A stretch of DNA of 46,646 bases from an uncultured bacterium (GCA_964443545.1 CAYUCV010000003.1:8868-55513), one strand, 5' to 3'; positions 2,045 through 14,195 are shown, counted from the stretch's first letter. The notes: generated by a model not told the origin, from the sequence alone. Made by a program: numbers and translations.

Positions 2045-4083
2045 TGATCAATCATTTTATACTTTCGGGACTGATCACTTCTGTCACAACTCTATTCTTG
2101 GCTTTGTTCGTATTTCTTGCTAACCCCAACAAGAGACTCAACCGTTATTTTGCCTTCTATACACTTTGCATTTCCTTATGGAGCATATCAGTTTATATGC
2201 ATCAGCCGACCTTGGCCGGTATTTCTGCGGATATGTGGGGGAAGATCCTTCATGTCGGGTCGATCCTCATTCCTCTCGGCTTTCTGATATTTACATTTGA
2301 GCTTCTTGGCTCTCTCAACAGAGAGAAAATAGTTATATATTCGGCTGGTGTGGCATCGGCAGTATTCATTTATTTAACAATGTTCACCGATCTGTTGATA
2401 AACGGGACTACATATAGGGACTTATACTGCTACCCAACTCCAAGCAAGTATTACATTCTATTCTTTATATATTTTGTATCTTGTGTCATATACGGTCTTT
2501 TCAAATTGGTCAGGAGTTATCAAATATCGGACAATATCAAGAGGAACCAACTGCAGTATTTGATATTTGGCTCAGTTTTTGGTTATCTCGGAGGCTTAGA
2601 CAATTTTTTGATCACGATTGACATAATAGTCTTCCCATTCTATCCCTATGGCGCATATGCAATAGCGATTTATTCTCTTATAACAGCCTACGCGATAGTG
2701 ACTGCCCGCCTCATGGATATCGAGGTAATAATACGGAAGGGGTTGATATATTCGATACTTTCGGTGATATTGACCGCCGTGTATTTTTCGGTGGTGTACG
2801 CCGCAAAGCTGGTGTTTTACAGGCTCACGGGAGCAAATACTCTGTGGTTCATCGTTCCGGCGGTCTTCTTTTTGTCGCTGTTCATCCATCCGCTGTTCTC
2901 CTTTGTCCAGGACTTTGTTGACAAGCGCTTCTTTAAGACCAAGTACGAGGCCGACAAAATAGCCAAAAAGTTCTCGGAGGGCATAAAAAAACTAATGAGG
3001 GCAAAGGACCTGGCCGAGTACATAAACAGGGTGGCGCTGCGCACCTTTAAGCTCAAGGGTAGCGCGGTTTATATTTTTGATGAAGAAGATGGGCTCTACA
3101 AGCGCTGGGACTCAAGGGGTTCTCTGCAGCAGCTATGCCCGCCGGTCATATCTAAAGATGATCCTGTTGTCCTAAAGATGGTATCGGCCAGGGGTATCGT
3201 GCAGGACCTAAAGGCCGAGCACATAAAGATCTGCGTTCCGGCGCTTTCAAAAAGAAAGGGGTACAGCATTTCCGGTTTCCTTCTTGCCGACGAAAAAAAA
3301 TCCGAGGACCAGTTCAGCCAGCAGGACATCATGCTGCTGGAAACGATAGCCAACCAGGCCGTTGTCAGTATAGACAATGCCGTCCTATATTCTGCCAGGA
3401 TAGACGCCCGCAAAAAAGCGCTGCTTGTGGAAAGGCTCAATGAACTCGGGTCCTCCGCCGCCGCGGTGGCCCACCAGACAAGAGCGGCAATGGGGCCGGT
3501 GATAGATTTTGCAGCGCAGCTGCAGCAGCAGTACGCCGACCGCGACTTTGTGGGAAGAGCTCTGTCCAAATTCCCCTTTGATGTGGAAAGATTGCGCCTT
3601 ATTTTGACAGGGATACTGGAATACTCTAGGGAGCTAAAGCTCGGCAGGGTGGAGGAGCTTGACCTTAAAGAAATGGTTTTAGGAGTAGCGTCCCTTATAA
3701 ACGGCAGGGCGCAAGAAAAGGGGATAACCGTTGAGACGGATATCTCTGACGGGGCTTTGGTAAAGGCAGAAAAAGGCCGCTTCAGGGATGTCCTTATCTA
3801 TCTTGCCATCAACTGCCTGGAGGCCCTCCAATACGGAGGCAGCATCAGGATCTCTGCCGAAAAGCGCGGCGATAAAATGCGCATCTACTTTAGCGATAAC
3901 GGTCCGGGAGTTTTGCCGGATGTTCTTATTAAGGTCTTTAACCCGTTCTTTACCACAAAACCGGGCTCCATAGGCCTGGGGCTTTCGATAGTAAAAAAGA
4001 TAATCGAAGGACACGGCGGGAGCGTCTTTATGGAAAGCGAGCCGGGGAAGGGGACAACTGTAATTCTGGAGCTGCCGTCCTAA
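2044..4083 (+). CDS. Membrane histidine kinase: N-terminal 7TM (HisKA_7TM-like) sensor, extra TM helices, GAF, HisKA/HATPase with degenerate H-box
   Basis: About 9 hydrophobic segments, YAIVTARLMDI end-of-7TM motif, GAF-like GFLLADEKKSEDQFSQQDIMLLETIANQA, AHQTRAA, DNGPG, PFFTTK, GLGL. TAATG overlap with the methyltransferase stop. Confidence 0.9.
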   Translation: MINHFILSGLITSVTTLFLALFVFLANPNKRLNRYFAFYTLCISLWSISVYMHQPTLAGISADMWGKILHVGSILIPLGFLIFTFELLGSLNREKIVIYSAGVASAVFIYLTMFTDLLINGTTYRDLYCYPTPSKYYILFFIYFVSCVIYGLFKLVRSYQISDNIKRNQLQYLIFGSVFGYLGGLDNFLITIDIIVFPFYPYGAYAIAIYSLITAYAIVTARLMDIEVIIRKGLIYSILSVILTAVYFSVVYAAKLVFYRLTGANTLWFIVPAVFFLSLFIHPLFSFVQDFVDKRFFKTKYEADKIAKKFSEGIKKLMRAKDLAEYINRVALRTFKLKGSAVYIFDEEDGLYKRWDSRGSLQQLCPPVISKDDPVVLKMVSARGIVQDLKAEHIKICVPALSKRKGYSISGFLLADEKKSEDQFSQQDIMLLETIANQAVVSIDNAVLYSARIDARKKALLVERLNELGSSAAAVAHQTRAAMGPVIDFAAQLQQQYADRDFVGRALSKFPFDVERLRLILTGILEYSRELKLGRVEELDLKEMVLGVASLINGRAQEKGITVETDISDGALVKAEKGRFRDVLIYLAINCLEALQYGGSIRISAEKRGDKMRIYFSDNGPGVLPDVLIKVFNPFFTTKPGSIGLGLSIVKKIIEGHGGSVFMESEPGKGTTVILELPS

Positions 4084-5324
4084 TCCTTATACTTTCTTGC
4101 TATCAGTATCGCGTTGTGCCCGCCAAAGCCGAATGAATTGCTCATGGCGATCTCCACTTTCATCTGCCTTCCCTTGTTGGGCACATAATCAAGGTCGCAG
4201 TTGGGGTCGGGGTTTTCATAATTGATGGTGGGGTGCACAAAATCCTCCTGCAGGGACTTTGCTACCGCGGCAAACTCTACCGCGCCCGCGGCTCCCAATA
4301 GATGCCCGGTCATGGACTTTGTAGAGCTGATGGCAAGCTTGTTTGCATGCGCTCCGAACACTTTTTTGATGGCCATTGTCTCTAGCTTGTCGTTAAGTTC
4401 TGTCGAGGTCCCGTGGGCGTTTATATAGTCCACCTGCTCCGGTTTTATTCCCGCGCTTTTGATAGCCGCTTCCATACACCGCACGGCCCCGCCGCCTTGT
4501 GAATCGGGTGCGGTCATGTGGAAAGCGTCGCCACTCATCCCATAGCCTATCACTTCGCAGTAAATGCGGGCCCCGCGCTTTTTGGCGCTTTCAAGCTCTT
4601 CGAGCACAACAATGCCGCTGCCTTCGCCCATAACAAATCCGTCGCGGCCGGCGTCAAACGGCCTTGAGGCCTTTTCCGGAGCGTCGTTCCTGCACGAAAG
4701 GGCCTGAGCGGAGCAGAAACCGGCTATTCCAAGCGGAGTGATCGAGGCTTCGGAGCCCCCCGCAAACATGACGTTGGCAGCTCCTCTTTTGATGAGCTCG
4801 TAAGCATCGCCGATCGAATGCGTTCCCGAAGCGCAGGCGGTAGTTGTGCAGCTGTTGGGGCCTTTGGCGCCAAGGTGTATGGAGGTGACCCCGGCGGCCA
4901 TGTCGTTTATCATAAGAGGGACCATAAAGGGAGAGCACTTGGACGGCCCTTTTTCCTTTAGCGTATAGGCCTGCTGTTCCAAAAATTCTATGCCTCCGAT
5001 ACCGGAGCCTATCAGAACGCCTGTAAGAGGCGCGGTTTGTTCGTTTATTGCCAGTCCGCTGTCGTCCAGGGCCATTTTTGAAGCAGCCACGGCAAACTGG
5101 ATGAACTTTACCAGCCTGCGCGCTTCCTTCTTGTCAAAATACTTGAGCGGGTCAAAGTCTTTTACCTGTCCGGCAATCTGGGAGTCAAATCCGGAGGGGT
5201 CAAAATGGGTGATGCGGCTTATCCCGCTTTTTCCTTCTTTAAGAGCGCTCCAAAAAGAATCCGCGTCGTTACCCAGAGGGGTTACAGCGCCCAGTCCCGT
5301 CACCACCACCCTACGCTCCGGCAT
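4080..5324 (-). CDS. fabF: 3-oxoacyl-ACP synthase II
   Basis: RRVVVTGLG, TTACASG (catalytic Cys), INAHGTST, TGHLLGAAG, SNSFGFGGHN. Confidence 0.97.
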   Translation of the reverse strand: MPERRVVVTGLGAVTPLGNDADSFWSALKEGKSGISRITHFDPSGFDSQIAGQVKDFDPLKYFDKKEARRLVKFIQFAVAASKMALDDSGLAINEQTAPLTGVLIGSGIGGIEFLEQQAYTLKEKGPSKCSPFMVPLMINDMAAGVTSIHLGAKGPNSCTTTACASGTHSIGDAYELIKRGAANVMFAGGSEASITPLGIAGFCSAQALSCRNDAPEKASRPFDAGRDGFVMGEGSGIVVLEELESAKKRGARIYCEVIGYGMSGDAFHMTAPDSQGGGAVRCMEAAIKSAGIKPEQVDYINAHGTSTELNDKLETMAIKKVFGAHANKLAISSTKSMTGHLLGAAGAVEFAAVAKSLQEDFVHPTINYENPDPNCDLDYVPNKGRQMKVEIAMSNSFGFGGHNAILIARKYKD

Positions 5325-6324
5325 AGTTTTCCTCCAGTTTAGAGTTTTTGCACAGGCCGGACAGGCAGTCCTCGGCCTCTTTTACCAGGTCGGCTATTAT
5401 TTCTTTTGCCGGCCTGATCCTTTTATCCTTTATCTTTAGTATGCTCTGTCCGCAAAACACCAGGCCTTCTTCCATATTGCCCTTGTGGGCGGCCCTAAGC
5501 ACTTCAAAAATACAATAAAGTTTGGAACAGGACTTGAGGCAGTTGTCGCAGAACTTGATCCTGGGATAGATCCCTTTCTGCATGTTCTCTATCAGTTTGG
5601 TCCTAACAGCCCTTCCGGGAAGCCCCACAGGGCTTTTTATTATGACCACATCCTCCGGGCCTTTTACATTCTGATACGCCCGCTTATATTCTAGAGCGGC
5701 ATCGCACTCCTCGGCCAGCACAAAGTTAGTGGCAAGCTGGGCCCCGCTGGCCCCCAGTTTGATCATTTTGGCTATCCCGCAGCCGTCGGCTATTCCTCCC
5801 GCGGCTATTATCGGCACATCAGCAACTGCCTCTTTGACCTCTTTTAAAAGGTCCACAGTGCTCTTTTCAAGAGTCCCCAGATGTCCGCCGGCTTCGCTGC
5901 TTTCGGCCACAATGGCCGCGGCCCCGAGCTTTTTTGCTGTCAGCGCCAGCCTGCCCGAAGATACTATAGGGATAATTGGAATGTTCATCTGGCTGCTGAG
6001 CCTGAAGAGGTCCCTGGAAAATCCGGCTCCGGAGGTTATAAAATCGATCTTTTCTTTGATGGCAGTGTTGACTATGCCCAGAAAATCCTTGGCGGCAAAG
6101 AGGATGTTGATGCCGATAATCCCGTCCTTTGTCAGGCTCCGGGCTATCCGCATTTCCTTTGCCAGTTCGTCGTGCTCCATGCCCGAGGCGCCTATCACGC
6201 CGACGGCGCCCGTTGCAGCCACGGAGCCGGCCAGTTTTCCGGTAGAGATCCTGATGGACATCCCGCCCTGAACGATCGGGAGCTTGGCCACCAGTTTTCC
6301 GATCTTTAACTCGGGCAGTTTCAT
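5311..6324 (-). CDS. Nitronate-monooxygenase-family flavoprotein with C-terminal Cys cluster; FabX-like (or FabK-like)
   Basis: LKIG..PIVQGGM..IS, AGGHLG, IAAGGI, IKSPVGLPGRA, CDNCLKSC..YCI, GNMEEGLVFCG; sits between acpP and fabF. Confidence 0.8.
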   Translation of the reverse strand: MKLPELKIGKLVAKLPIVQGGMSIRISTGKLAGSVAATGAVGVIGASGMEHDELAKEMRIARSLTKDGIIGINILFAAKDFLGIVNTAIKEKIDFITSGAGFSRDLFRLSSQMNIPIIPIVSSGRLALTAKKLGAAAIVAESSEAGGHLGTLEKSTVDLLKEVKEAVADVPIIAAGGIADGCGIAKMIKLGASGAQLATNFVLAEECDAALEYKRAYQNVKGPEDVVIIKSPVGLPGRAVRTKLIENMQKGIYPRIKFCDNCLKSCSKLYCIFEVLRAAHKGNMEEGLVFCGQSILKIKDKRIRPAKEIIADLVKEAEDCLSGLCKNSKLEENYAGA

Positions 6325-6381: not shown

Positions 6382-6400
6382 AAAAAAAGCCTTGCGGCCC
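6382..6400 (-). terminator. Short intrinsic terminator/attenuator right after acpP
   Basis: Minus strand reads GGGCC-GCAA-GGCTT (GNRA tetraloop) running into a T7 tract directly after the acpP stop. Confidence 0.55.
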
Positions 6401-6401
6401 G

Positions 6402-6647
6402 TCAGTTCTTTGCGTGGGCAAGAACGTATGCTACTGTGTCTCCCACGGTCTTTATCTTTTCGGCTTCTTCGTCCGGTATCTCAAAGCCAAAGGCTTCTTC
6501 AAGCGCCATGACCAGCTCCACGGTGTCCAGAGAGTCGGCTCCCAGGTCGTCCACATAGGAAGCCTGCTTTGTGACCTCGCTCTCGTTGACCCCGAGCTGA
6601 TCCACCACCACCTTTTTTACCTGCTCGAACGCTTTCTGCTCGTCCAT
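6402..6647 (-). CDS. acpP: Acyl carrier protein
   Basis: [19 protein letters not shown] phosphopantetheine motif. Start moved to ATG 6647 (MDEQK) behind a GGGGGTG SD. Confidence 0.97.
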
Positions 6648-6672: not shown

Positions 6673-7410
6673 CTACATGTACATTCCGCCGTTGACGCTT
6701 ATGACCTGACCCGTTATGTACGGGGCGTCAGCGCATAAGAACACGACGGCTTTGGCAACATCTTCGGCAGATCCCAGGCTTCCCATGGGTATCTGGGCCT
6801 TAAGTTTTTCCCTGACCTCTTCGGGCAGTTTTTTTGTCATGTCGGTGTCGATAAACCCCGGGGCAACGGCGTTGGCGGTTATGCCTCTTGAGGCCAGTTC
6901 TCTTGCGGTGGTCTTTGTAAGAGCTATTACCCCGCCCTTGGAAGCAGAATAGTTGGCCTGTCCGGCGTTGCCCATCAGCCCCACAATAGAAGCGATGTTG
7001 ACTATCCTGCCGTAGCGGGCTTTCATCATAAGGGAAGAAACGGCTTTTGTGCAGTTAAAGACGCCTTTGAGGTTAATGCCTATCACCAGGTCCCAGTCCT
7101 CTTCTTTCATCCTCATAAGAAGACCGTCCCTTGTTATGCCGGCATTGTTTATCAGTATGTCTATCTTGCCGAACTCGGAGTGGGCGCTTTTTACGGCCTC
7201 TTCCACTTCTTTGCCGTCTGCCACATTCATCTTGAGGGCAGAAGACTTTACCCCGGATTTTTTCAGTTCTTCGGAAGTAGAACGGGCGGCCTCTATATTG
7301 ACATCGGATACTATAATATCGCAGCCTTCTTTTGCCAGAGCTTCGCAGACGGACCTGCCGATGCCCTGGGCGCCTCCGGTAACAAGCGCAACTTGGCCTT
7401 TAAGTTTCAA
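6673..7410 (-). CDS. fabG: 3-oxoacyl-ACP reductase
   Basis: TGGAQGIG, NNAGITRD, YSASK, NAVAPGFIDTDMT; fab context. Confidence 0.96.
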   Translation of the reverse strand: MKLKGQVALVTGGAQGIGRSVCEALAKEGCDIIVSDVNIEAARSTSEELKKSGVKSSALKMNVADGKEVEEAVKSAHSEFGKIDILINNAGITRDGLLMRMKEEDWDLVIGINLKGVFNCTKAVSSLMMKARYGRIVNIASIVGLMGNAGQANYSASKGGVIALTKTTARELASRGITANAVAPGFIDTDMTKKLPEEVREKLKAQIPMGSLGSAEDVAKAVVFLCADAPYITGQVISVNGGMYM

Positions 7411-8318
7411 AGAACGGCTCCTTTTACAGAAACGCTGTCCTCAACATTGTATATTTTAGCATTTTCCAGGGTCTTTTTAACAAGCCCCGACAGTATCTTG
7501 CCGCAGCCTATCTCCACAAAGGTGGCAAAACCCTGCAGGGATAGGTTTTTTAGGGTGTCTTCCCAGAGCACAGGGCTGGTCACCTGCTTTACAAGCAGTT
7601 CTTTGATCTTTGCCGCGTCGGTCTGGGGGGAGGCGGTCACATTAGAATATACCGGGAACGAAGGGCTCTTAAAACCGGTCTTGTCCAGCTCGACAGCCAG
7701 TTTGTCCGCCGCCGGCTTCATAAGCGAGCAGTGGAAAGGGGCGCTTACAGCAAGGGGGATTATTTTTTTTGCGCCGGCCTCTTTGCAGAGCCGTCCGGCC
7801 TCTTCAACCCCTTCTTTTGTACCCGAGATCACTATCTGTCCCGGGCTGTTAAAATTGGCCGGCTCCACAACGCCTTTTGAAGAAGCCGCAGCGCAGCAGG
7901 CTGCCAGTTTTTCCCTGTCCAATCCCAGCACCGCGGACATGGCCCCTTGCCCTGCCGGCACCGCCTCCTGCATGAACCTGCCGCGCAGATGAACTATCCT
8001 AACGGCATCCTCAAAAGACAGCGCGCCCGAGGCCACCAGCGCCGAATACTCGCCCAGGCTGTGGCCGGCGGCCGCCTTTGGGGTTTTTCCAAGGGACATA
8101 AAAGCGGCGGTGCTTACGGTCAGTATCGCGGGCTGGGCTATTTCTGTGGATTTTAAGGCATCGTCGGGACCTTCAAAGCAGAGTTTGGATAGTTCAAATC
8201 CAAGGGCCCTGTCGGCTTTGGCAAAGATCTCTTTTGCCGCCTCAAAATTGTCATAGAGGTCTTTGCCCATGCCGGCTTTTTGGGAGCCCTGTCCGGGAAA
8301 AATGAACACGCTTGTCAA
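7407..8318 (-). CDS. fabD: Malonyl-CoA:ACP transacylase
   Basis: FPGQGSQ, GHSLGEY, LAVSAPFH. Confidence 0.97.
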   Translation of the reverse strand: MTSVFIFPGQGSQKAGMGKDLYDNFEAAKEIFAKADRALGFELSKLCFEGPDDALKSTEIAQPAILTVSTAAFMSLGKTPKAAAGHSLGEYSALVASGALSFEDAVRIVHLRGRFMQEAVPAGQGAMSAVLGLDREKLAACCAAASSKGVVEPANFNSPGQIVISGTKEGVEEAGRLCKEAGAKKIIPLAVSAPFHCSLMKPAADKLAVELDKTGFKSPSFPVYSNVTASPQTDAAKIKELLVKQVTSPVLWEDTLKNLSLQGFATFVEIGCGKILSGLVKKTLENAKIYNVEDSVSVKGAVL

Positions 8319-9520
8319 GAAAGGAGCTCCTTGAAGGTTTTGGTCATGGCGGGAAGCACTTCAAAAAGGTCTCCCACAATGCCGTAGGTGGCCACATTAA
8401 AAATAGGTGCGAATTGGTCTTTGTTTATGGCCACGATCACATCTGACGAGGACATCCCTGCCAAATGCTGGATGGCCCCCGAAATGCCGCAGGCTATATA
8501 CAGTTTGGGGCTTACCGTCTTTCCGGTCTGTCCCACCTGGTGGAACTGGGATATCCAGCCGGCGTCCACAGTGGCGCGCGAGGCCCCCACTGCCCCGCCG
8601 ATGATATCTGCCAGGTCCTTTACAAGCTTAAAATTTTCGGCGCATCCAAGTCCGCGTCCGCCTGACACGATTATCTCGGCCTCCGCCAGGTTCACTTTCT
8701 TTTCTGTTGATTGTATTATCTCGAGAAGTTTGACCCTCAGCGACTTTTCCGATATCTTTACGGGTAACTCTATTATCCGGCCTTTTCTTGACGCGTCCGG
8801 CTGGAGTTTTTTGAACACTTTGGGCCGTACAGTGGCCATTTGCGGCCTAAAATCTGGAGAAATGATGGTGGCCATGATGTTGCCGCCAAAAGCGGGGCGG
8901 GTCTGGCGCAGGATCTTCTTTTCGGGGTCTATGTCAAGCCCGGTGCAGTCCGCGGTAAGCCCCACTCTTATCCTTGCCGCGATCCTTGAGGCAAGGTCTC
9001 TTCCGGTGGTGGTGGCCCCCATAAGCACTATCGCCGGGTTATGGGCTTTTATCAGTTCTACAATGGTATCGCAGTAGGGTTCGGTAGTGTAGTTCTTCAA
9101 TTTTGCATCGCTGCACACATAGACCTTATCTGCCCCGTAGTGTATCAGCTCCTGAGCGGCCTTCTTGATGCCCTCATCGCCTAAAAGCACCGCGGCCACT
9201 TCTTCGCCCAGGTCCGCAGCAAGTTTTCTGGCTTCGGCGATAAGCTCCATAGCCACTCCCTGCACTTTGCCCTGGTGCTGCTCGGCAAATACCCAGATAC
9301 CCTTAAAGCCGGAGAGGTCCTTTTTGGGGCCTTCTTTCTTGGTAACGGTGATCTCGATAGCTTTGAATTTGCAGGGGCCCACGCAGGCGCCGCACAGGAC
9401 GCATTTATCGTTGATGACGGCCAGTTTTCCGTGCATTTCTATCGCCCCGTACGGGCAGGAAGGCACGCAAAGCCTGCAGCCTTTGCATTTTTCCGCTATT
9501 ACTCTTATTCCTTCGGGCAT
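8315..9520 (-). CDS. etfA: Electron transfer flavoprotein alpha subunit with N-terminal 2x[4Fe-4S] ferredoxin domain
   Basis: CKGCRLCVPSCP and CVLCGACVGPC; GLTADCT, RPAFGGNIMATI, QVGQTGKTV, GISGAIQHLAGM. Confidence 0.94.
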   Translation of the reverse strand: MPEGIRVIAEKCKGCRLCVPSCPYGAIEMHGKLAVINDKCVLCGACVGPCKFKAIEITVTKKEGPKKDLSGFKGIWVFAEQHQGKVQGVAMELIAEARKLAADLGEEVAAVLLGDEGIKKAAQELIHYGADKVYVCSDAKLKNYTTEPYCDTIVELIKAHNPAIVLMGATTTGRDLASRIAARIRVGLTADCTGLDIDPEKKILRQTRPAFGGNIMATIISPDFRPQMATVRPKVFKKLQPDASRKGRIIELPVKISEKSLRVKLLEIIQSTEKKVNLAEAEIIVSGGRGLGCAENFKLVKDLADIIGGAVGASRATVDAGWISQFHQVGQTGKTVSPKLYIACGISGAIQHLAGMSSSDVIVAINKDQFAPIFNVATYGIVGDLFEVLPAMTKTFKELLS

Positions 9521-9521
9521 A

Positions 9522-10304
9522 TCAAAGCACCTTTTGTTCTTTTAGTTTGCCAAACAGGGTTTTTGCTATTATTTCTGGCTCGCCCTCAAGCAGCTCGCTC
9601 TTTCCCCTTGGCGGCGGCGTAAATATCCGAACCACTTTTGTGGGAGAGCCGTTCAAACCAGTATTATTCTCGTCTGCCGCAATATCTTTTGCGCTCCACG
9701 AAGGGATCGCCATCTTTTTTGCCCGCATCTGCCCCTTTAGCGAAGGCATTCTGGGCTCATTTATCTGCTTAATGACGGTAACAGCGGCCGGAAGATCCGT
9801 TTCTACTATCTCGGAAGTGTCCTCCAACTGGCGCTTGACCCGTATCTTGCCGCCTTCGGACTCTATGCTGATGGCAAAGGTGATCTGAGGGATGTCCAAA
9901 AACTCCGCTACCCCGGGGCCCACCTGCGCGGTGTCTCCGTCTATGGCCTGCTTTCCAAAAAGCACCAGATCATAGGCGCCGAGTTTTTTGATCGCCTGCG
10001 AAAGGGTGTAAGAGGTGGCCCAGGTGTCCGCCCCGGCAAAGGCCCTGTCGGATATGAGGACGGCTTCGTCCGCTCCCATTGCTATTGCTGTCTTTAGCGC
10101 GTCGGCCGCCTGCGGAGGGCCCATGGTGATAACGGTAACTTTGCCGCCGCCTGCGTCCCGGAGCCTCAAAGCGGCTTCAACGGCGTTCTCGTCAAAGGGA
10201 TTGATGATGCTCTTTACGCCCTCCCTGATGAGGGTGTTGGTTTTAGGGTCTATCCTGACATCGTTGGTGTCAGGTACCTGTTTTATGCAGACTACAATGT
10301 TCAT
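9522..10304 (-). CDS. etfB: Electron transfer flavoprotein beta subunit
   Basis: VCIKQVPDT, INPFDENAVEAA, DRAFAGADTWAT, GKQAIDGDTAQVGP. Confidence 0.95.
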   Translation of the reverse strand: MNIVVCIKQVPDTNDVRIDPKTNTLIREGVKSIINPFDENAVEAALRLRDAGGGKVTVITMGPPQAADALKTAIAMGADEAVLISDRAFAGADTWATSYTLSQAIKKLGAYDLVLFGKQAIDGDTAQVGPGVAEFLDIPQITFAISIESEGGKIRVKRQLEDTSEIVETDLPAAVTVIKQINEPRMPSLKGQMRAKKMAIPSWSAKDIAADENNTGLNGSPTKVVRIFTPPPRGKSELLEGEPEIIAKTLFGKLKEQKVL

Positions 10305-10331
10305 CTGTTCATTTTATTTTAACATACAACA

Positions 10332-10352
10332 GCCCCGCTTAAAAAGCGGGGC
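10332..10352. repeat. Perfect 9-bp palindromic stem-loop in the ACAD-etfB spacer
   Basis: GCCCCGCTT-AAA-AAGCGGGGC. Confidence 0.6.
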
Positions 10353-10372
10353 CGGATTATCGGTCTTTTTTG

Positions 10373-11530
10373 TTATTTTGTGGCAGCGGATTCTTTGATC
10401 AGCTGCAGGGCGATAACATTCCTCTGTATCTGGTTGGTGCCCTCGTATATCTGGGTTATCTTGGCGTCCCTCATGTATTTTTCCACGGGGTATTCTTTCA
10501 TATAGCCGTAGCCGCCCAGTATCTGTACCGCATCGACGGTGACCTTCATGGAAACATCGCTGGCAAAAAGTTTGCTCATGGCCGAATCCCTGGAGATGCT
10601 ATCTGTGCCGGTGTCAACGGTCCTGGCTGTTGCAATCACAAGGGCCCTTGCGGCTTCTATCTGCGTGGCCATGTCCGCAAGTATGTGCTGGACCCCCTGG
10701 AAAGAAGAAACGGGTTTGCCGAACTGCACCCTTGTCCTTGAGTAGTTAAGAGCTTCTTCAAAAGCGCCCTGCGCTATGCCCACCGCCTGTGCTCCTATGC
10801 CCGGCCTGGTCCTGTCCAGGGTCTTCATCGCGACAATGAACCCCATGCCTTCTTTACCAAGCATCTGTGATTTGTGTATCTTGCAGTCCTGGAACACAAG
10901 TTCCCTTGTTGCGGAGCATCTGATCCCCATCTTGTTCTCTTTTTTGCCGAAGGTAAAACCCGGCATGCCTTTTTCAAGGATAAAAGCGGTGGCCCCGCGG
11001 CTGCCCCTTTTTTTGTCCGTCATTGCGATCACCGTGTAGATCTCGGCTTCCCCGCCGTTGGTGATCCACTGCTTGGTCCCGTTGAGAATGTAGTAGTCGC
11101 CGTCCTTTTTGGCTGTGGTCTCTATCCCGCTGGCATCAGATCCCGCGTTGGCCTCGGTAAGGCCAAAGGCCGCCAGCTTTTTGCCGGAGGCAATTGGGGG
11201 AAGATACTTCTTTTTCTGTTCTTCCGTGCCGAAAAGCACTAAGGGATAGCAGCCCAGCGCTGATGCGGCAAAAGTGACGCCTACGCCTCCGCAGATCCTG
11301 CTGACCTCTTCGGTGGCCAGACAGAATTCAAGGCAGCCGCCGCCAAACCCGCCGTATTCGGGAGCTATATAGAGCCCGCAAAGATCGGCTTCGGCAAAGA
11401 CCTTCATGAGTTCCCAGGGGAACTGGCCAGTTTCGTCAAGTTCGGCCCTTAAGGGTTTCACTTTTTCTTCAGAAATCTTCCTCGCAAGGTCCTTGATCAT
11501 CTTTTGCTCATCAGTCAACAAATAGTCCAT
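10373..11530 (-). CDS. Acyl-CoA dehydrogenase (butyryl-CoA dehydrogenase/Bcd-like)
   Basis: AFGLTEANAGSDA, LNGTKQWITNG, RVQFGKP, QILGGYGYMKEYPVEKYMRDAKITQIYEGTNQIQR. Start taken at MDYLL (11530). Confidence 0.93.
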   Translation of the reverse strand: MDYLLTDEQKMIKDLARKISEEKVKPLRAELDETGQFPWELMKVFAEADLCGLYIAPEYGGFGGGCLEFCLATEEVSRICGGVGVTFAASALGCYPLVLFGTEEQKKKYLPPIASGKKLAAFGLTEANAGSDASGIETTAKKDGDYYILNGTKQWITNGGEAEIYTVIAMTDKKRGSRGATAFILEKGMPGFTFGKKENKMGIRCSATRELVFQDCKIHKSQMLGKEGMGFIVAMKTLDRTRPGIGAQAVGIAQGAFEEALNYSRTRVQFGKPVSSFQGVQHILADMATQIEAARALVIATARTVDTGTDSISRDSAMSKLFASDVSMKVTVDAVQILGGYGYMKEYPVEKYMRDAKITQIYEGTNQIQRNVIALQLIKESAATK

Positions 11531-11535
11531 TGCCG

Positions 11536-12513
11536 CTAAACCCCCCATTTAATAATATTGGCGCCCGATGTGAGCCCGGCGCCAAAGCCGACCACCGCAA
11601 TTATATCACCTTTCTTTATCCTGCCGTCTTTGAGCGCTTCGTCAAGGGCGATAGGGATCGAAGCCGCGGAAGTGTTGCCGTATTTTTCCAGATTTACAAA
11701 GACCTTTTCTTTTGGGATGCCGAATTTTTTCATTGCGTGGTCTATTATCCTTATATTGGCCTGGTGAGGGATCAAAAGGTCTATTCTATCGTGGGTAAGG
11801 CCGGCTGAGCCAAGGGCGCTGAGCAGGGTATTTTCAAAAGCTTTTACCGCAAATTTAAAAACTTCCTTGCCGTTCATGGTTATACAGCGTTCTTTTTCGT
11901 CCTTTGGCCTGGGGTTCCTGCTGCCCCCGCCGGGCATTGTAAGATACGGCGCTCCGGTCCCGTCCGAGGTCAGCGTGCTTGCAAGTATGCCTTCTCCTGC
12001 TTTTGCCTGCGAAAGCACCACCGCTCCGGCTCCGTCGCCAAAAAGAACGCAGGTTCCGCGGTCGCTCCAATCAAGATATTTTGCCAGAGTGTCCGCGCCT
12101 ACAACAAGAGCCTTTTTGCTGCTGCCCGCCTTAAAAAAATTGGAAGCAACGGTCAGGGCAAAATTAAACCCCGAGCAGGCGGCCGAAACATCAAAAGCGG
12201 CGGCATTTTTTGCGCCGATCTTGCCCTGAATGATGCAGCCGACAGAAGGGAACAGCGTGTCGGGGGTGGAAGTGCCTACTATTATAAGGTCGAGCTCCTC
12301 CGGGGAGGTTTTGGAAGCCTTAAGGGCTTTTTCTACAGCGAGCATGGCAAGGTCCGAAGTTGAGGTTTTTTCGTCCGATACCCTTCGCTGCCCTATGCCG
12401 GTCCTTGTCTTTATCCACTCGTCCGAAGTGTCAACTATCTTTGACAGATCAAGGTTGGTCAGGACCTTTTCGGGCAGCGCGGAGCCTGTACCTATTATCT
12501 TTGCGTTGCTCAT
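11536..12513 (-). CDS. fabH: 3-oxoacyl-ACP synthase III
   Basis: DTSDEWIKTRTGI, AACSGF, LFGDGAGA, PHQAN, YGNTSAASIP. Confidence 0.97.
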   Translation of the reverse strand: MSNAKIIGTGSALPEKVLTNLDLSKIVDTSDEWIKTRTGIGQRRVSDEKTSTSDLAMLAVEKALKASKTSPEELDLIIVGTSTPDTLFPSVGCIIQGKIGAKNAAAFDVSAACSGFNFALTVASNFFKAGSSKKALVVGADTLAKYLDWSDRGTCVLFGDGAGAVVLSQAKAGEGILASTLTSDGTGAPYLTMPGGGSRNPRPKDEKERCITMNGKEVFKFAVKAFENTLLSALGSAGLTHDRIDLLIPHQANIRIIDHAMKKFGIPKEKVFVNLEKYGNTSAASIPIALDEALKDGRIKKGDIIAVVGFGAGLTSGANIIKWGV

Positions 12514-13484
12514 TTTATGCCGCAGCTGATGCTTTCAACTATATTTTCCTTTACGGATTCCGCGCAGCTCTTTATGGCGTTCTTTATAGCCTTGGCCTTT
12601 GCCCTGCCGTGCGCTTTAAAAACGATTCCGTTAAGCCCCAGTATCAGGGCGGCTCCAAATTCATCATAATCTATTTTCTTTTTTATGCCGAGCAGGGCGG
12701 GCAGAAGAAGCGTAGCCCCAAGCATTGAGACCGGATTGCGCAGCATTTCTTTCTTAATCAGTTTGAACACCATGGAGGTGGCGCTTTCCCCGAACTTCAG
12801 GATTATGTTGCCGATAAAGCCGTCGCAGACCACAACATCGGTCTTTCCGGTAAGTATGTCGCCGCCTTCTATGTGGCCGATAAAGTTGAGCCCGCTTTCC
12901 TTGAGCAGGGGATAAGTATCTGCTGTAAGTTCATTGCCCTTTTCGGTCTCTTCGCCTATGTTAAGCAGGCCTATCCGCGGGTTTTTTACATGCATAACAT
13001 GTCCGGCGTACTGCGAACCCATCTGAGCGAACTGCAGCAGGTTCTTGGGCTTGCAGTCTACATTTGCTCCCATGTCCAGCAGCAGTACCTTGCCCCCGTT
13101 CATTGTAGGGAACACGGTTGCTATGGCCGGGCGTTCTACGGCCTCTATGCGGCCCAGCTTAAAAAGGGCCGAGGCTATAAGCGCTCCGGTGTTCCCGGCA
13201 GAAATAACTGCGTCCACTTTTTTTTCTTTAAGAAGATTGAGGGCCACATTTATGGAGGAGTCTTTTTTCTGTTTAACCGAGGAAACCGGGGATTCGTGCA
13301 TACCGATCACCTCGGAAGCATGCACTATCTCAAAGGTCGAAGCTTTTTTGATGCTTTTTAGGACTTTTTCGTTGCCGACAAGCACTATCTGAATATCGCC
13401 GCTGCCGGACGCCGAAAGCGCGCCTCTTATAATCTCAGCGGGGGCATGATCTCCGCCCATAGCGTCAAGGGCGATGCGTATCAA
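12510..13484 (-). CDS. plsX: Phosphate:acyl-ACP acyltransferase
   Basis: IALDAMGGDHAP, SAGNTGA, LLDMGAN, VVCDGFIGNI, KAHG. Confidence 0.96.
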   Translation of the reverse strand: MIRIALDAMGGDHAPAEIIRGALSASGSGDIQIVLVGNEKVLKSIKKASTFEIVHASEVIGMHESPVSSVKQKKDSSINVALNLLKEKKVDAVISAGNTGALIASALFKLGRIEAVERPAIATVFPTMNGGKVLLLDMGANVDCKPKNLLQFAQMGSQYAGHVMHVKNPRIGLLNIGEETEKGNELTADTYPLLKESGLNFIGHIEGGDILTGKTDVVVCDGFIGNIILKFGESATSMVFKLIKKEMLRNPVSMLGATLLLPALLGIKKKIDYDEFGAALILGLNGIVFKAHGRAKAKAIKNAIKSCAESVKENIVESISCGIK

Positions 13485-13487
13485 GGA

Positions 13488-13691
13488 TCAGTTCTCCTTT
13501 TTTTTCGGCTTCTTTTCTTTGATCGCAATGACCTGGCGCCCTTTGTACTTGCCGCATACCGAACACGCGGTGTGAGAAAGCACTTCGCTGCCACACTCCG
13601 GACAGGACCCGTAATTGACCGGCTTGATCTTCCAGGTGGCCCTTCTTCTGAGCGTCCTGGTGTTACTGTGTCTCTTTTTTGGGACCGGCAT
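13488..13691 (-). CDS. rpmF: 50S ribosomal protein L32 (Zn-ribbon type)
   Basis: MPVPKKRHS, CPEC..H..CSVCGKYKG; yceD-rpmF-plsX context. Confidence 0.96.
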   Translation of the reverse strand: MPVPKKRHSNTRTLRRRATWKIKPVNYGSCPECGSEVLSHTACSVCGKYKGRQVIAIKEKKPKKKEN

Positions 13692-14154
13692 TTCTTTCTT
13701 CCTCCTTTTTAAAGACCTCTTTAAGTTTTTCCAGTCTCGGATCGATCACTTTTTTCTTTTCCGAACTTCCGGGCACTTTGCAGTCCTTAGAACAGATCGT
13801 CTGTATCGGCATGGAAGCCAGAAGGTTTTGCCTGAGAGCTTCCGACAGGTCTATATAGTTGTCGCTGCTTATGGGAAAGGTCATCTCGTCCGACGGTTCC
13901 CGGCAGAATTGCTCTTCTATGTTAACCTTAAGGTCCCCAGTAAAGGCTTTGCCGCACCGGCTGCAGGTTAAAGCGGCCTTTGCTGACAGCTTACCTGTGG
14001 CCAGAATGCCTTCGCCCGCGTTGACCAGATGAAGCGATGCTTTTACCGGGCCCAGGACCTCAAGCCCGTCCTGCGGCCAGGAGAGCTTTTCCTCCCGCCT
14101 AAAATCAGCCTCATTGCCGATGTGCTTGAGGAGCTCCCCGACGTCTGCTTTCAT
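13663..14154 (-). CDS. yceD: DUF177/YceD family protein
   Basis: CSRC, IDLSEALRQNLLASMP..CSKDCK, DPRLEKL; directly upstream of rpmF. Confidence 0.88.
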   Translation of the reverse strand: MKADVGELLKHIGNEADFRREEKLSWPQDGLEVLGPVKASLHLVNAGEGILATGKLSAKAALTCSRCGKAFTGDLKVNIEEQFCREPSDEMTFPISSDNYIDLSEALRQNLLASMPIQTICSKDCKVPGSSEKKKVIDPRLEKLKEVFKKEEERNAGPKKETQ

Positions 14155-14165
14155 CTTCTGTTTTC

Positions 14166-14195
14166 ATTATAAGGCAAGCGGAGCCGGGGTGTCAA
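14166..14195 (-). promoter_or_regulatory. Consensus sigma70 promoter of the yceD-fab operon
   Basis: TTGACA-18 bp-TATAAT; yceD ATG follows 11 nt after the -10 element. Confidence 0.75.

Follow-up and report, generated by a model that had tools for sequence, protein, structure and literature searches.

In a 46,646-nucleotide stretch of a metagenome-assembled genome of Candidatus Margulisiibacteriota (GCA_964443545.1 CAYUCV010000003.1:8868-55513; this whole stretch is called the window below), the genes for an acyl-CoA dehydrogenase family flavoprotein (ACAD) and for the two electron-transfer flavoprotein subunits EtfB and EtfA are embedded in the operon for type II fatty-acid synthesis (FAS II). 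From the comparison of sequences and gene distributions we consider it fairly likely that this trio is an undescribed, probably electron-bifurcating enoyl-acyl carrier protein (enoyl-ACP) reductase of FAS II, which replaces FabI, FabK, FabL or FabV. The proposal builds on what can be observed directly, namely the gene content, the placement in the operon, the conservation of the arrangement, the complementarity to FabI, the lack of a gene set forming enoyl-CoA and the bifurcating-type features of the Etf. No publication proposing an ACAD and Etf as enoyl-ACP reductase was found in the literature on enoyl-ACP reductases, acyl dehydrogenases, Etf bifurcation and Margulisbacteria. The initial annotation of the window had named a bifurcating enoyl reductase for fatty-acid synthesis as one of three possible roles of the trio, and this suggestion has gained from the synteny, the exclusion of FabI, the failure to find a canonical enoyl reductase in the closely inspected genomes and the bifurcating type of the Etf, all of them comparative arguments; the other two, supply of acyl-CoA primers to FabH and redox partnership with a FabX-like enzyme, are given up below. 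The host assembly comprises 1.26 Mb in 71 contigs and is rated 91% complete, and the window is part of its contig C3.

The operon is read from the minus strand in the order yceD-rpmF-plsX-fabH-ACAD-etfB-(ferredoxin)etfA-fabD-fabG-acpP-FabX-like-fabF, and, as annotated initially, the trio stands between fabH (11536..12513, beta-ketoacyl-ACP synthase III; TIGR00747, 406 bits, cut-off 292) and fabD (7407..8318, malonyl-CoA:ACP transacylase with a TTG start; TIGR00128, 368 bits). The ACAD (10373..11530, 385 aa) is Bcd-like and has three Pfam Acyl-CoA_dh domains, etfB (9522..10304) codes for 260 aa with bifurcating-type segments, and etfA (8315..9520, 401 aa) starts with a two-[4Fe-4S] ferredoxin domain and matches the Pfam families Fer4, ETF and ETF_alpha. 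The tight coupling described at annotation is borne out by the junctions: 5 nt separate the fabH stop TAG (11538-11536) from the ACAD ATG at 11530, 1 nt separates the etfB stop TGA from the etfA ATG, and the etfA stop and the fabD start overlap by 4 nt in TTGA. The ACAD start at 11530 is preferred over the in-frame upstream ATG at 11548 because in the longer form the alignment to the family models begins only at residue 7. Pfam searches of the larger open reading frames detected neither fabI, fabL or fabV nor crt, hbd, thl or other butyrate or beta-oxidation genes in the window, and at that level the annotated absence of these genes from operon and window holds.

The arrangement is not unique to the host genome. 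We compared 18-kb regions around the ACAD orthologue in 40 relatives from 12 families, each of which has one such orthologue with 73-98% identity, except that the gene is split across contig ends in G009, split in G103 and broken in G032. The contiguous order fabH-ACAD-etfB-etfA-fabD was found in 33 of the 40 loci, and four more (L055, L060, L061 and L068) are cut by a contig end and agree as far as their sequence goes. Only three deviate: L053 has no upstream fab genes, L069 contains a 46% paralogue and L070 is frameshifted. Conservation of this order is far beyond chance, and no other protein of the operon is as well conserved as the ACAD; its identity is 73-98%, compared with 55-70% for FabD. 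At L070 (G032:C6:337500-355500), frameshifts or stops interrupt every gene in the stretch running from ACAD to fabF, with the exception of fabG, and spare yceD, plsX, fabH and xer; either the whole pathway is decaying or the assembly is poor (70% complete, 6 contigs), and the locus is not used as evidence.

Association of the ACAD with fab genes extends beyond the Margulisbacteria. In a wider scan with one genome per species, limited to the best 80 of 594 stretches encoding relatives, 25 loci had fab genes beside the ACAD, and these included loci from Nitrospirota, Thermodesulfobacteriota/Desulfobulbaceae, Omnitrophota, KSB1 and several "Proteobacteria". Another 16 of the 80 had only etfBA next to the ACAD, and in the remainder it was alone or on a short contig. 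The order is yceD-plsX-fabH-ACAD-etfB-etfA-fabD-fabG-acpP-fabF, with no FabX-like gene, in G080 (97% complete), and plsX-fabH-ACAD-etfBA-fabG-acpP-fabF in G042.

A further indication of function comes from the distribution of FabI. Among 97 Margulisbacteria genomes, each at least 85% complete, 65 carry the ACAD and 28 carry FabI, none carries both and four (G046, G058, G086 and G102) carry neither, so that FabI is present in 28 of the 32 genomes lacking the ACAD. The same pattern is seen in 121 Omnitrophota genomes (ACAD in 51, FabI in 37, both in none, neither in 33) and in 121 Nitrospirota genomes (ACAD in 66, FabI in 42), where the only genome with both, G171, has a weak FabI-like match of 158 bits. 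Under independence, the marginal counts would give about 19 genomes with both genes in Margulisbacteria, 23 in Nitrospirota and 16 in Omnitrophota, figures that ignore kinship and have no probability attached. FabK exceeded its cut-off in four Nitrospirota genomes, none of them ACAD-positive, and FabL was found in 0 of the 121, with a control match in Bacillus subtilis. FabV was likewise found in 0 of the 121 by a search that matched no control genome either. It is the ACAD, and not the FabX-like gene, that excludes FabI, and the exclusivity is near-perfect in the three phyla without being universal.

FabI, FabL and FabV belong to the short-chain dehydrogenase/reductase (SDR) superfamily, and we inspected five genomes closely for such genes (G000, G001, G005, G010 and G015, of which two are single-contig and one is rated 100% complete). 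A genome search for fabI, fabK, fabL and fabV had been proposed at annotation, and in these genomes it returned none of the four, the FabV search having matched no control genome. For no SDR was FabI or FabL the top-scoring NCBIfam family; the matches to adh_short_C2 were FabG, sugar dehydrogenases and other dehydrogenases, and the FabX-like gene of the operon was the only real NMO gene. Three further ACAD-positive genomes, G080, G048 and G054, had no FabI, no FabL above cut-off, no NMO gene and, in a search without a control match, no FabV, which leaves the ACAD as the only remaining candidate enoyl reductase that we could recognise from their sequences. As a side observation, in each of the four inspected genomes with a FabZ match the domain is embedded in a larger open frame (419-457 aa), perhaps as an LpxC-FabZ fusion; G000 has two copies 4 kb apart on C7 (39877-40245 and 43782-44150), and G005 is the inspected genome without a FabZ match.

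An enzyme acting at the CoA level would need a supply of enoyl-CoA. The host genome has a single ACAD. Thiolase was found in none of five genomes searched (G000, G001, G010, G015 and G080), crotonase in one (G080) and a 3-hydroxyacyl-CoA dehydrogenase (Hbd) domain in two (G001 and, weakly, G080), by searches that each matched in 9-11 control genomes. With thiolase missing and crotonase and Hbd mostly so, the single ACAD has no evident source of enoyl-CoA. At 13 orthologue loci elsewhere without a match to FabH, FabD or FabG, Pfam annotation showed no crotonase, 3-hydroxyacyl-CoA dehydrogenase or thiolase as a neighbour; one of the 13, L073, has acpP, fabF and rnc upstream.

The ACAD itself is closest to the Bcd subunits of known complexes, with 429 bits to that of 5OL2 and 416 bits to that of 4L1F (identity of about 56-58%, judged by eye), and only 318 bits to CarC. 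The catalytic glutamate, Glu363 in the motif YEGT, is kept in the alignment to 5OL2_C and 4L1F_A and is invariant in 51 orthologues. In a quick IQ-TREE run (LG+G4, 114 rows, none dropped, the Bcds of 5OL2 and 4L1F not among them), all 47 fab-linked ACADs fell inside one clade of 90 rows with an SH-aLRT of 98. Outside this clade were five ACADs with 38-53% identity from four loci of a plasmid collection: Pusillibacter with hbd-acad-etfBA, Ilyobacter with ctfAB-thl-...-acad and Sporomusa, whose two ACADs neighbour genes for a CoA-transferase and an enoyl-CoA hydratase, all three being operons of CoA pathways, and Fusobacterium, whose record is without annotation. Only G82, F194, M344 and K351 set the clade apart (conservation of 90% or more within it, the residue being shared by no more than 25% of the sequences outside).

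The Etf has sequence features of the bifurcating type. EtfB carries RAFAG at 87, DGDTAQVGP at 122 and SPT at 220, segments retained in its orthologues (RxFxG in 52 of 54, DGDTAQVGP in 54 of 54, SPT in 53 of 54) and labelled NAD, b-FAD and SPT in the relevant part of the Ldh-EtfAB study (PMC9232219). Its best PDB match is CarD (6FAH_B, 275 bits), followed by 5OL2_B, 4KPU_B, 7QH2 and 7KOE, the score to human ETF-beta being only 119 bits. EtfA matches CarE (6FAH_A) over its full length with 444 bits from residue 5 on, including the ferredoxin domain, which has CxxCxxCxxxC motifs at 12 and 40 and was found with both clusters in 45 of 52 EtfA orthologues. R208 of EtfA lies in RPAFGGN, a string that aligns with that of CarE and that all 53 orthologues have, and we infer that it corresponds to R205 of LctC, the arginine contacting N5 of the bifurcating FAD. 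Scores to the Etf of 5OL2, 6FAH, 7KOE and 4KPU are about twice those to human ETF, and the first three of these complexes are grouped as bifurcating in a section of PMC9232219.

The FabX-like gene of the operon (5311..6324) codes for an NMO-family flavoprotein, and its initial naming agrees with its catalytic residue His148, its four cysteines and its best PDB matches, FabX of Helicobacter pylori (7E1Q) and FabK with equal E-values. Membership in FabK is not indicated by the model TIGR03151, on which it scored 185 bits with a cut-off of 453. Among 38 aligned relatives His148 is kept in all and the cysteines (259, 262, 266 and 271) in 37; the four correspond to the [4Fe-4S] ligands given for FabX in the structural passages of PMC8626469 and probably hold such a cluster. 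The gene was found in 68 of the 97 Margulisbacteria genomes, and in the host and most relatives it shares one operon with the trio. The two also occur apart: G048, G054 and G080 are ACAD-positive and have no NMO gene at all; an NMO-family match at E<=1e-30 is missing from 46 of the 66 ACAD-positive Nitrospirota genomes; family f40 (G087-G091) has fabD-fabG-acpP-FabX-like-fabF with FabI elsewhere and no ACAD; and G086 has plsX-fabH-fabD-fabG-acpP-FabX-like-fabF with the trio missing and a second, more FabK-like NMO gene (279 bits). In addition, EtfA has its ferredoxin domain at loci that lack the FabX-like gene, and at six loci with that gene the domain is missing. Because the genes occur independently and the ferredoxin domain does not track the FabX-like gene, the trio and the FabX-like gene fill two independent slots of the operon. 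At another Margulisbacteria locus, L227 (G053:C308), a more FabK-like NMO gene with 226 bits on the FabK model and without the four cysteines stands divergently beside ACAD-etfB-etfA.

Several observations weigh against an enoyl-ACP reductase of the bifurcating type. Outside the three surveyed phyla, some genomes combine the ACAD with another candidate reductase: G231 (Terriglobia, ACAD alone) has a strong FabI of 339 bits, G230 (Spirochaetota, only etfBA beside the ACAD) a FabI of 238 bits, G227 and G228 (Lentisphaerae) a weak FabI-like gene of about 165 bits, and G042 a FabL equivalog of 368 bits (cut-off 328) together with a weak FabI-like gene. Several ACAD-carrying genomes (L209 in G042; G171:C22:210780-211520; G227:C38:15018-15767; G228:C19:376-1128) have an SDR that distantly resembles FabI and has a Yx6K motif, with 150-166 bits on FabI models whose cut-offs are 299-477; it could be a divergent enoyl reductase, weakening the replacement argument in those lineages. 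Two enoyl reductases in one genome are common in bacteria, and such cases therefore weaken the proposal without refuting it. Within Margulisbacteria, G058 has only the FabX-like gene and G046 none of ACAD, FabI and FabX-like gene, which calls for some other reductase there, unless the FabX-like protein can do the work. Lifestyle is a confounder, since the ACAD lineages are likely anaerobes and the FabI lineages likely aerobes; related genomes in the counts are not independent; and the lack of a control match also limits the FabV result of the five inspected genomes. With only four clade-specific positions, the ACAD has no obvious remodelling or docking adaptation specific to ACP. As to bifurcation, the ferredoxin domain is missing in seven of the 52 EtfA orthologues, and the best NCBIfam matches of the trio are the acryloyl-CoA reductase subunits AcrC, AcrB and AcrA of Clostridium propionicum, all below the equivalog cut-offs (456 of 640, 254 of 475 and 398 of 600 bits), so that membership is not indicated and bifurcation is not assured by family. 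The EtfAB of C. propionicum is described in part of PMC9232219 as non-bifurcating though highly related to bifurcating ones. Carnevali et al. 2019 (PMC6349859), who noted genes for EtfAB together with Bcd in Margulisbacteria, Saganbacteria and Melainabacteria, judged bifurcation unlikely and drew no connection of these genes to fatty-acid synthesis; the bifurcating-type segments of EtfB and the CarE-like EtfA contradict the former judgement.

These last points are what speaks for a non-bifurcating enoyl-ACP reductase, in which NADH electrons would pass via the Etf to the ACAD and no ferredoxin would be reduced, as in AcrABC. We regard this as unlikely, because the three FAD/NAD segments of EtfB and the arginine of EtfA are conserved, most EtfA orthologues have the CarE-like two-cluster ferredoxin domain, and the Etf scores to complexes of the bifurcating type are about double those to human ETF. 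An oxidative role is less probable still: the ACAD would turn acyl-ACP into trans-2-enoyl-ACP for unsaturated or modified lipids with the Etf as acceptor, and the true reductase would be an unrecognised enzyme elsewhere. ACAD-family enzymes do normally oxidise, and some use carrier-protein-bound substrates, MbtN, RedW and PigA being among the weaker NCBIfam matches of the ACAD, but oxidation would leave unexplained why, in three phyla, genomes with the ACAD almost never have FabI or FabK, and why this one gene of the operon is kept in single copy and conserved more strongly than the others. Moreover, the solved structures nearest to it (Bcd of 5OL2 and of 4L1F, CarC of 6FAH) come from complexes that reduce enoyl-CoA substrates.

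Just as improbable is that the FabX-like Fe-S flavoprotein is the real enoyl-ACP reductase and the ACAD and Etf deliver or dispose of its electrons. Such a partnership, which the initial annotation had also considered, would account for the shared operon and for G058 and G086, which have the FabX-like gene without ACAD or FabI, and according to the biochemical part of PMC8626469 FabX has no known electron partner besides O2. It was rejected nevertheless, as the trio and the FabX-like gene are distributed independently: the former is found in genomes with no NMO gene, the latter in f40 beside FabI, the ferredoxin domain follows neither presence nor absence of the FabX-like gene, and G086 also has its second, more FabK-like NMO gene. 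The least probable of the alternatives is an ordinary CoA-level Bcd/EtfAB, reducing crotonyl-CoA to form butyrate or a butyryl-CoA primer for FabH and placed in the operon for co-regulation only. The resemblance to the Bcds of 5OL2 and 4L1F and the very few residues particular to the clade are in its favour, and FabH does take acyl-CoA primers. The role was rejected because thiolase is absent in five of the five genomes, crotonase in four and Hbd in three; in addition, crt, hbd and thl are neither in the window nor beside the 13 orthologues elsewhere, and the sampled Bcds of CoA pathways fall outside the ACAD clade. In the favoured enoyl-ACP reductase, ACP as the substrate carrier, the direction of the reaction and the bifurcation are inferred.

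By homology with Bcd-EtfAB and CarCDE, a bifurcating enoyl-ACP reductase would be expected to work as follows. NADH would reduce the bifurcating FAD at the base of EtfA and EtfB, from which one electron would travel via the EtfA shuttle FAD to the FAD bound by the ACAD subunit, and the other would go uphill via the two [4Fe-4S] clusters of the N-terminal domain of EtfA to ferredoxin. After two such rounds the reduced ACAD flavin, together with Glu363, would convert trans-2-enoyl-ACP to acyl-ACP, with the net reaction enoyl-ACP + 2 NADH + 2 Fd(ox) -> acyl-ACP + 2 NAD+ + 2 Fd(red). The low-potential electrons from each elongation cycle could then go to hydrogenases or Rnf. It is possible, and put forward here with more doubt than conviction, that a new class of enoyl-ACP reductase with an ACAD fold and a bifurcating Etf takes the place of FabI or FabK in strictly anaerobic members of five or more phyla or candidate divisions, and that elongation there yields reduced ferredoxin and makes lipid synthesis partly energy-conserving.

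Enoyl reduction is the step of fatty-acid synthesis with the most enzyme diversity and a drug target (triclosan and isoniazid-type inhibitors), and many uncultured anaerobes show no recognisable enoyl reductase. If the proposal is true, the ACAD/Etf reductase fills this gap in large parts of Margulisbacteria, Nitrospirota, Omnitrophota, Desulfobulbia-like bacteria and others, and the last reduction of each elongation cycle has a new and possibly energy-saving enzyme type. If the enzyme is also bifurcating, FAS II would be the first core biosynthetic pathway returning low-potential ferredoxin to energy metabolism, with a bearing on growth yields at the thermodynamic limit, on hydrogen-isotope signatures of lipids and on metabolic models of candidate phyla. 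What is added here is the cross-tabulation over three phyla, the separation of the FabX-like gene as a slot of its own, the counter-examples and the near-absence of clade-specific residues.

The transcription unit yceD-rpmF-plsX-fab likely starts at a sigma-70-like promoter match upstream of yceD (14166..14195, minus strand; TTGACA-18-TATAAT, a consensus match only, 12/12). It is followed by yceD (13663..14154, DUF177/YceD, Pfam PF02620), by rpmF (13488..13691), which shares 29 nt with the 3' end of yceD and was named as a zinc-ribbon type ribosomal protein L32 by reading the translation and not from the family scan, and by plsX (12510..13484, phosphate acyltransferase; TIGR00182, 381 bits, cut-off 243). 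Downstream of the trio and fabD lie fabG (6673..7410, 3-oxoacyl-ACP reductase; TIGR01830, 337 bits), whose product is the sole adh_short_C2 SDR found in the host genome, acpP (6402..6647, ACP with a DSL motif, its start placed at an internal ATG), a terminator-like hairpin just after acpP (6387-6400), and, past the FabX-like gene, fabF (4080..5324, beta-ketoacyl-ACP synthase II; TIGR03150, 649 bits), all genes being on the minus strand. The spacer between ACAD and etfB is 68 nt long and holds an 11-pair GC-rich hairpin (10330-10354, minus strand) with a T-rich tail after it, the strongest terminator-like site on the minus strand of the window. Judging from gene coordinates, a 68-nt gap is found also in the same-genus relative G001 only, and other relatives have 0-10 nt. 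The hairpin may be an attenuator or an mRNA-stabilising element, setting the ratio of ACAD to Etf or stabilising the upstream message. At L041, L051 and L052 (G022, G034 and G040), 2-3.7 kb of other DNA separates ACAD from etfB in an otherwise unchanged gene order. Elsewhere the window has a housekeeping content, with SMC, ClpC-like and RadA-like proteins, DapB, ProA/ProB, IF3, L20, PanC, TopA, MutL, SLH proteins and histidine kinases.

Compared with known systems, the trio shares its three-subunit make-up with Bcd-EtfAB of Clostridioides difficile (5OL2) and Acidaminococcus fermentans (4KPU/4L1F), to whose Bcds the ACAD scores 429 and 416 bits with the catalytic glutamate in YEGT kept, and to whose Etf subunits EtfB scores 236-257 and EtfA 328-346 bits, with the bifurcating FAD and NAD segments kept. 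Unlike Bcd-EtfAB, the trio lies in a FAS II operon and not with crt, hbd and thl, and a CoA pathway to supply its substrate was not found; its EtfA has an extra ferredoxin domain, its ACAD stands in a well-supported clade separate from the sampled CoA-pathway Bcds, and its proposed substrate would be enoyl-ACP of all chain lengths instead of crotonyl-CoA. CarCDE, the caffeyl-CoA reductase-Etf complex of Acetobacterium woodii (6FAH), is the best solved match for EtfB (CarD, 275 bits) and EtfA (CarE, 444 bits), a match that takes in the N-terminal two-[4Fe-4S] ferredoxin domain, whereas for the ACAD the score to CarC (318 bits) lies below the 429 bits reached with Bcd, and the context is lipid synthesis in place of caffeate respiration. 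AcrABC of C. propionicum is an enoyl-CoA reductase made of an ACAD and an Etf and the top NCBIfam match for all three subunits, but each of these scores below its equivalog cut-off, and the EtfAB of C. propionicum is called non-bifurcating in the part of PMC9232219 cited above. With FabX of H. pylori the product of the 5311-6324 gene has in common the NMO family, the catalytic histidine and the four-Cys C-terminal subdomain as set out in passages of PMC8626469, and also the location in a fab operon; the spacing of the last cysteine differs, O2 is not a possible acceptor here because the host is a probable strict anaerobe, and the gene is distributed independently of the ACAD and Etf. With FabI, FabL, FabV and FabK the trio would share the reaction and the place in the pathway, it likewise stands in a fab operon, and its distribution is complementary to those of FabI and FabK. 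FabK is a flavoprotein of the NMO/TIM-barrel type, and the ACAD and Etf fold is unrelated to that of any of these four reductases; unlike them, the trio consists of three subunits with, by homology, three FAD and two Fe-S clusters, and reduced ferredoxin may be its second product.

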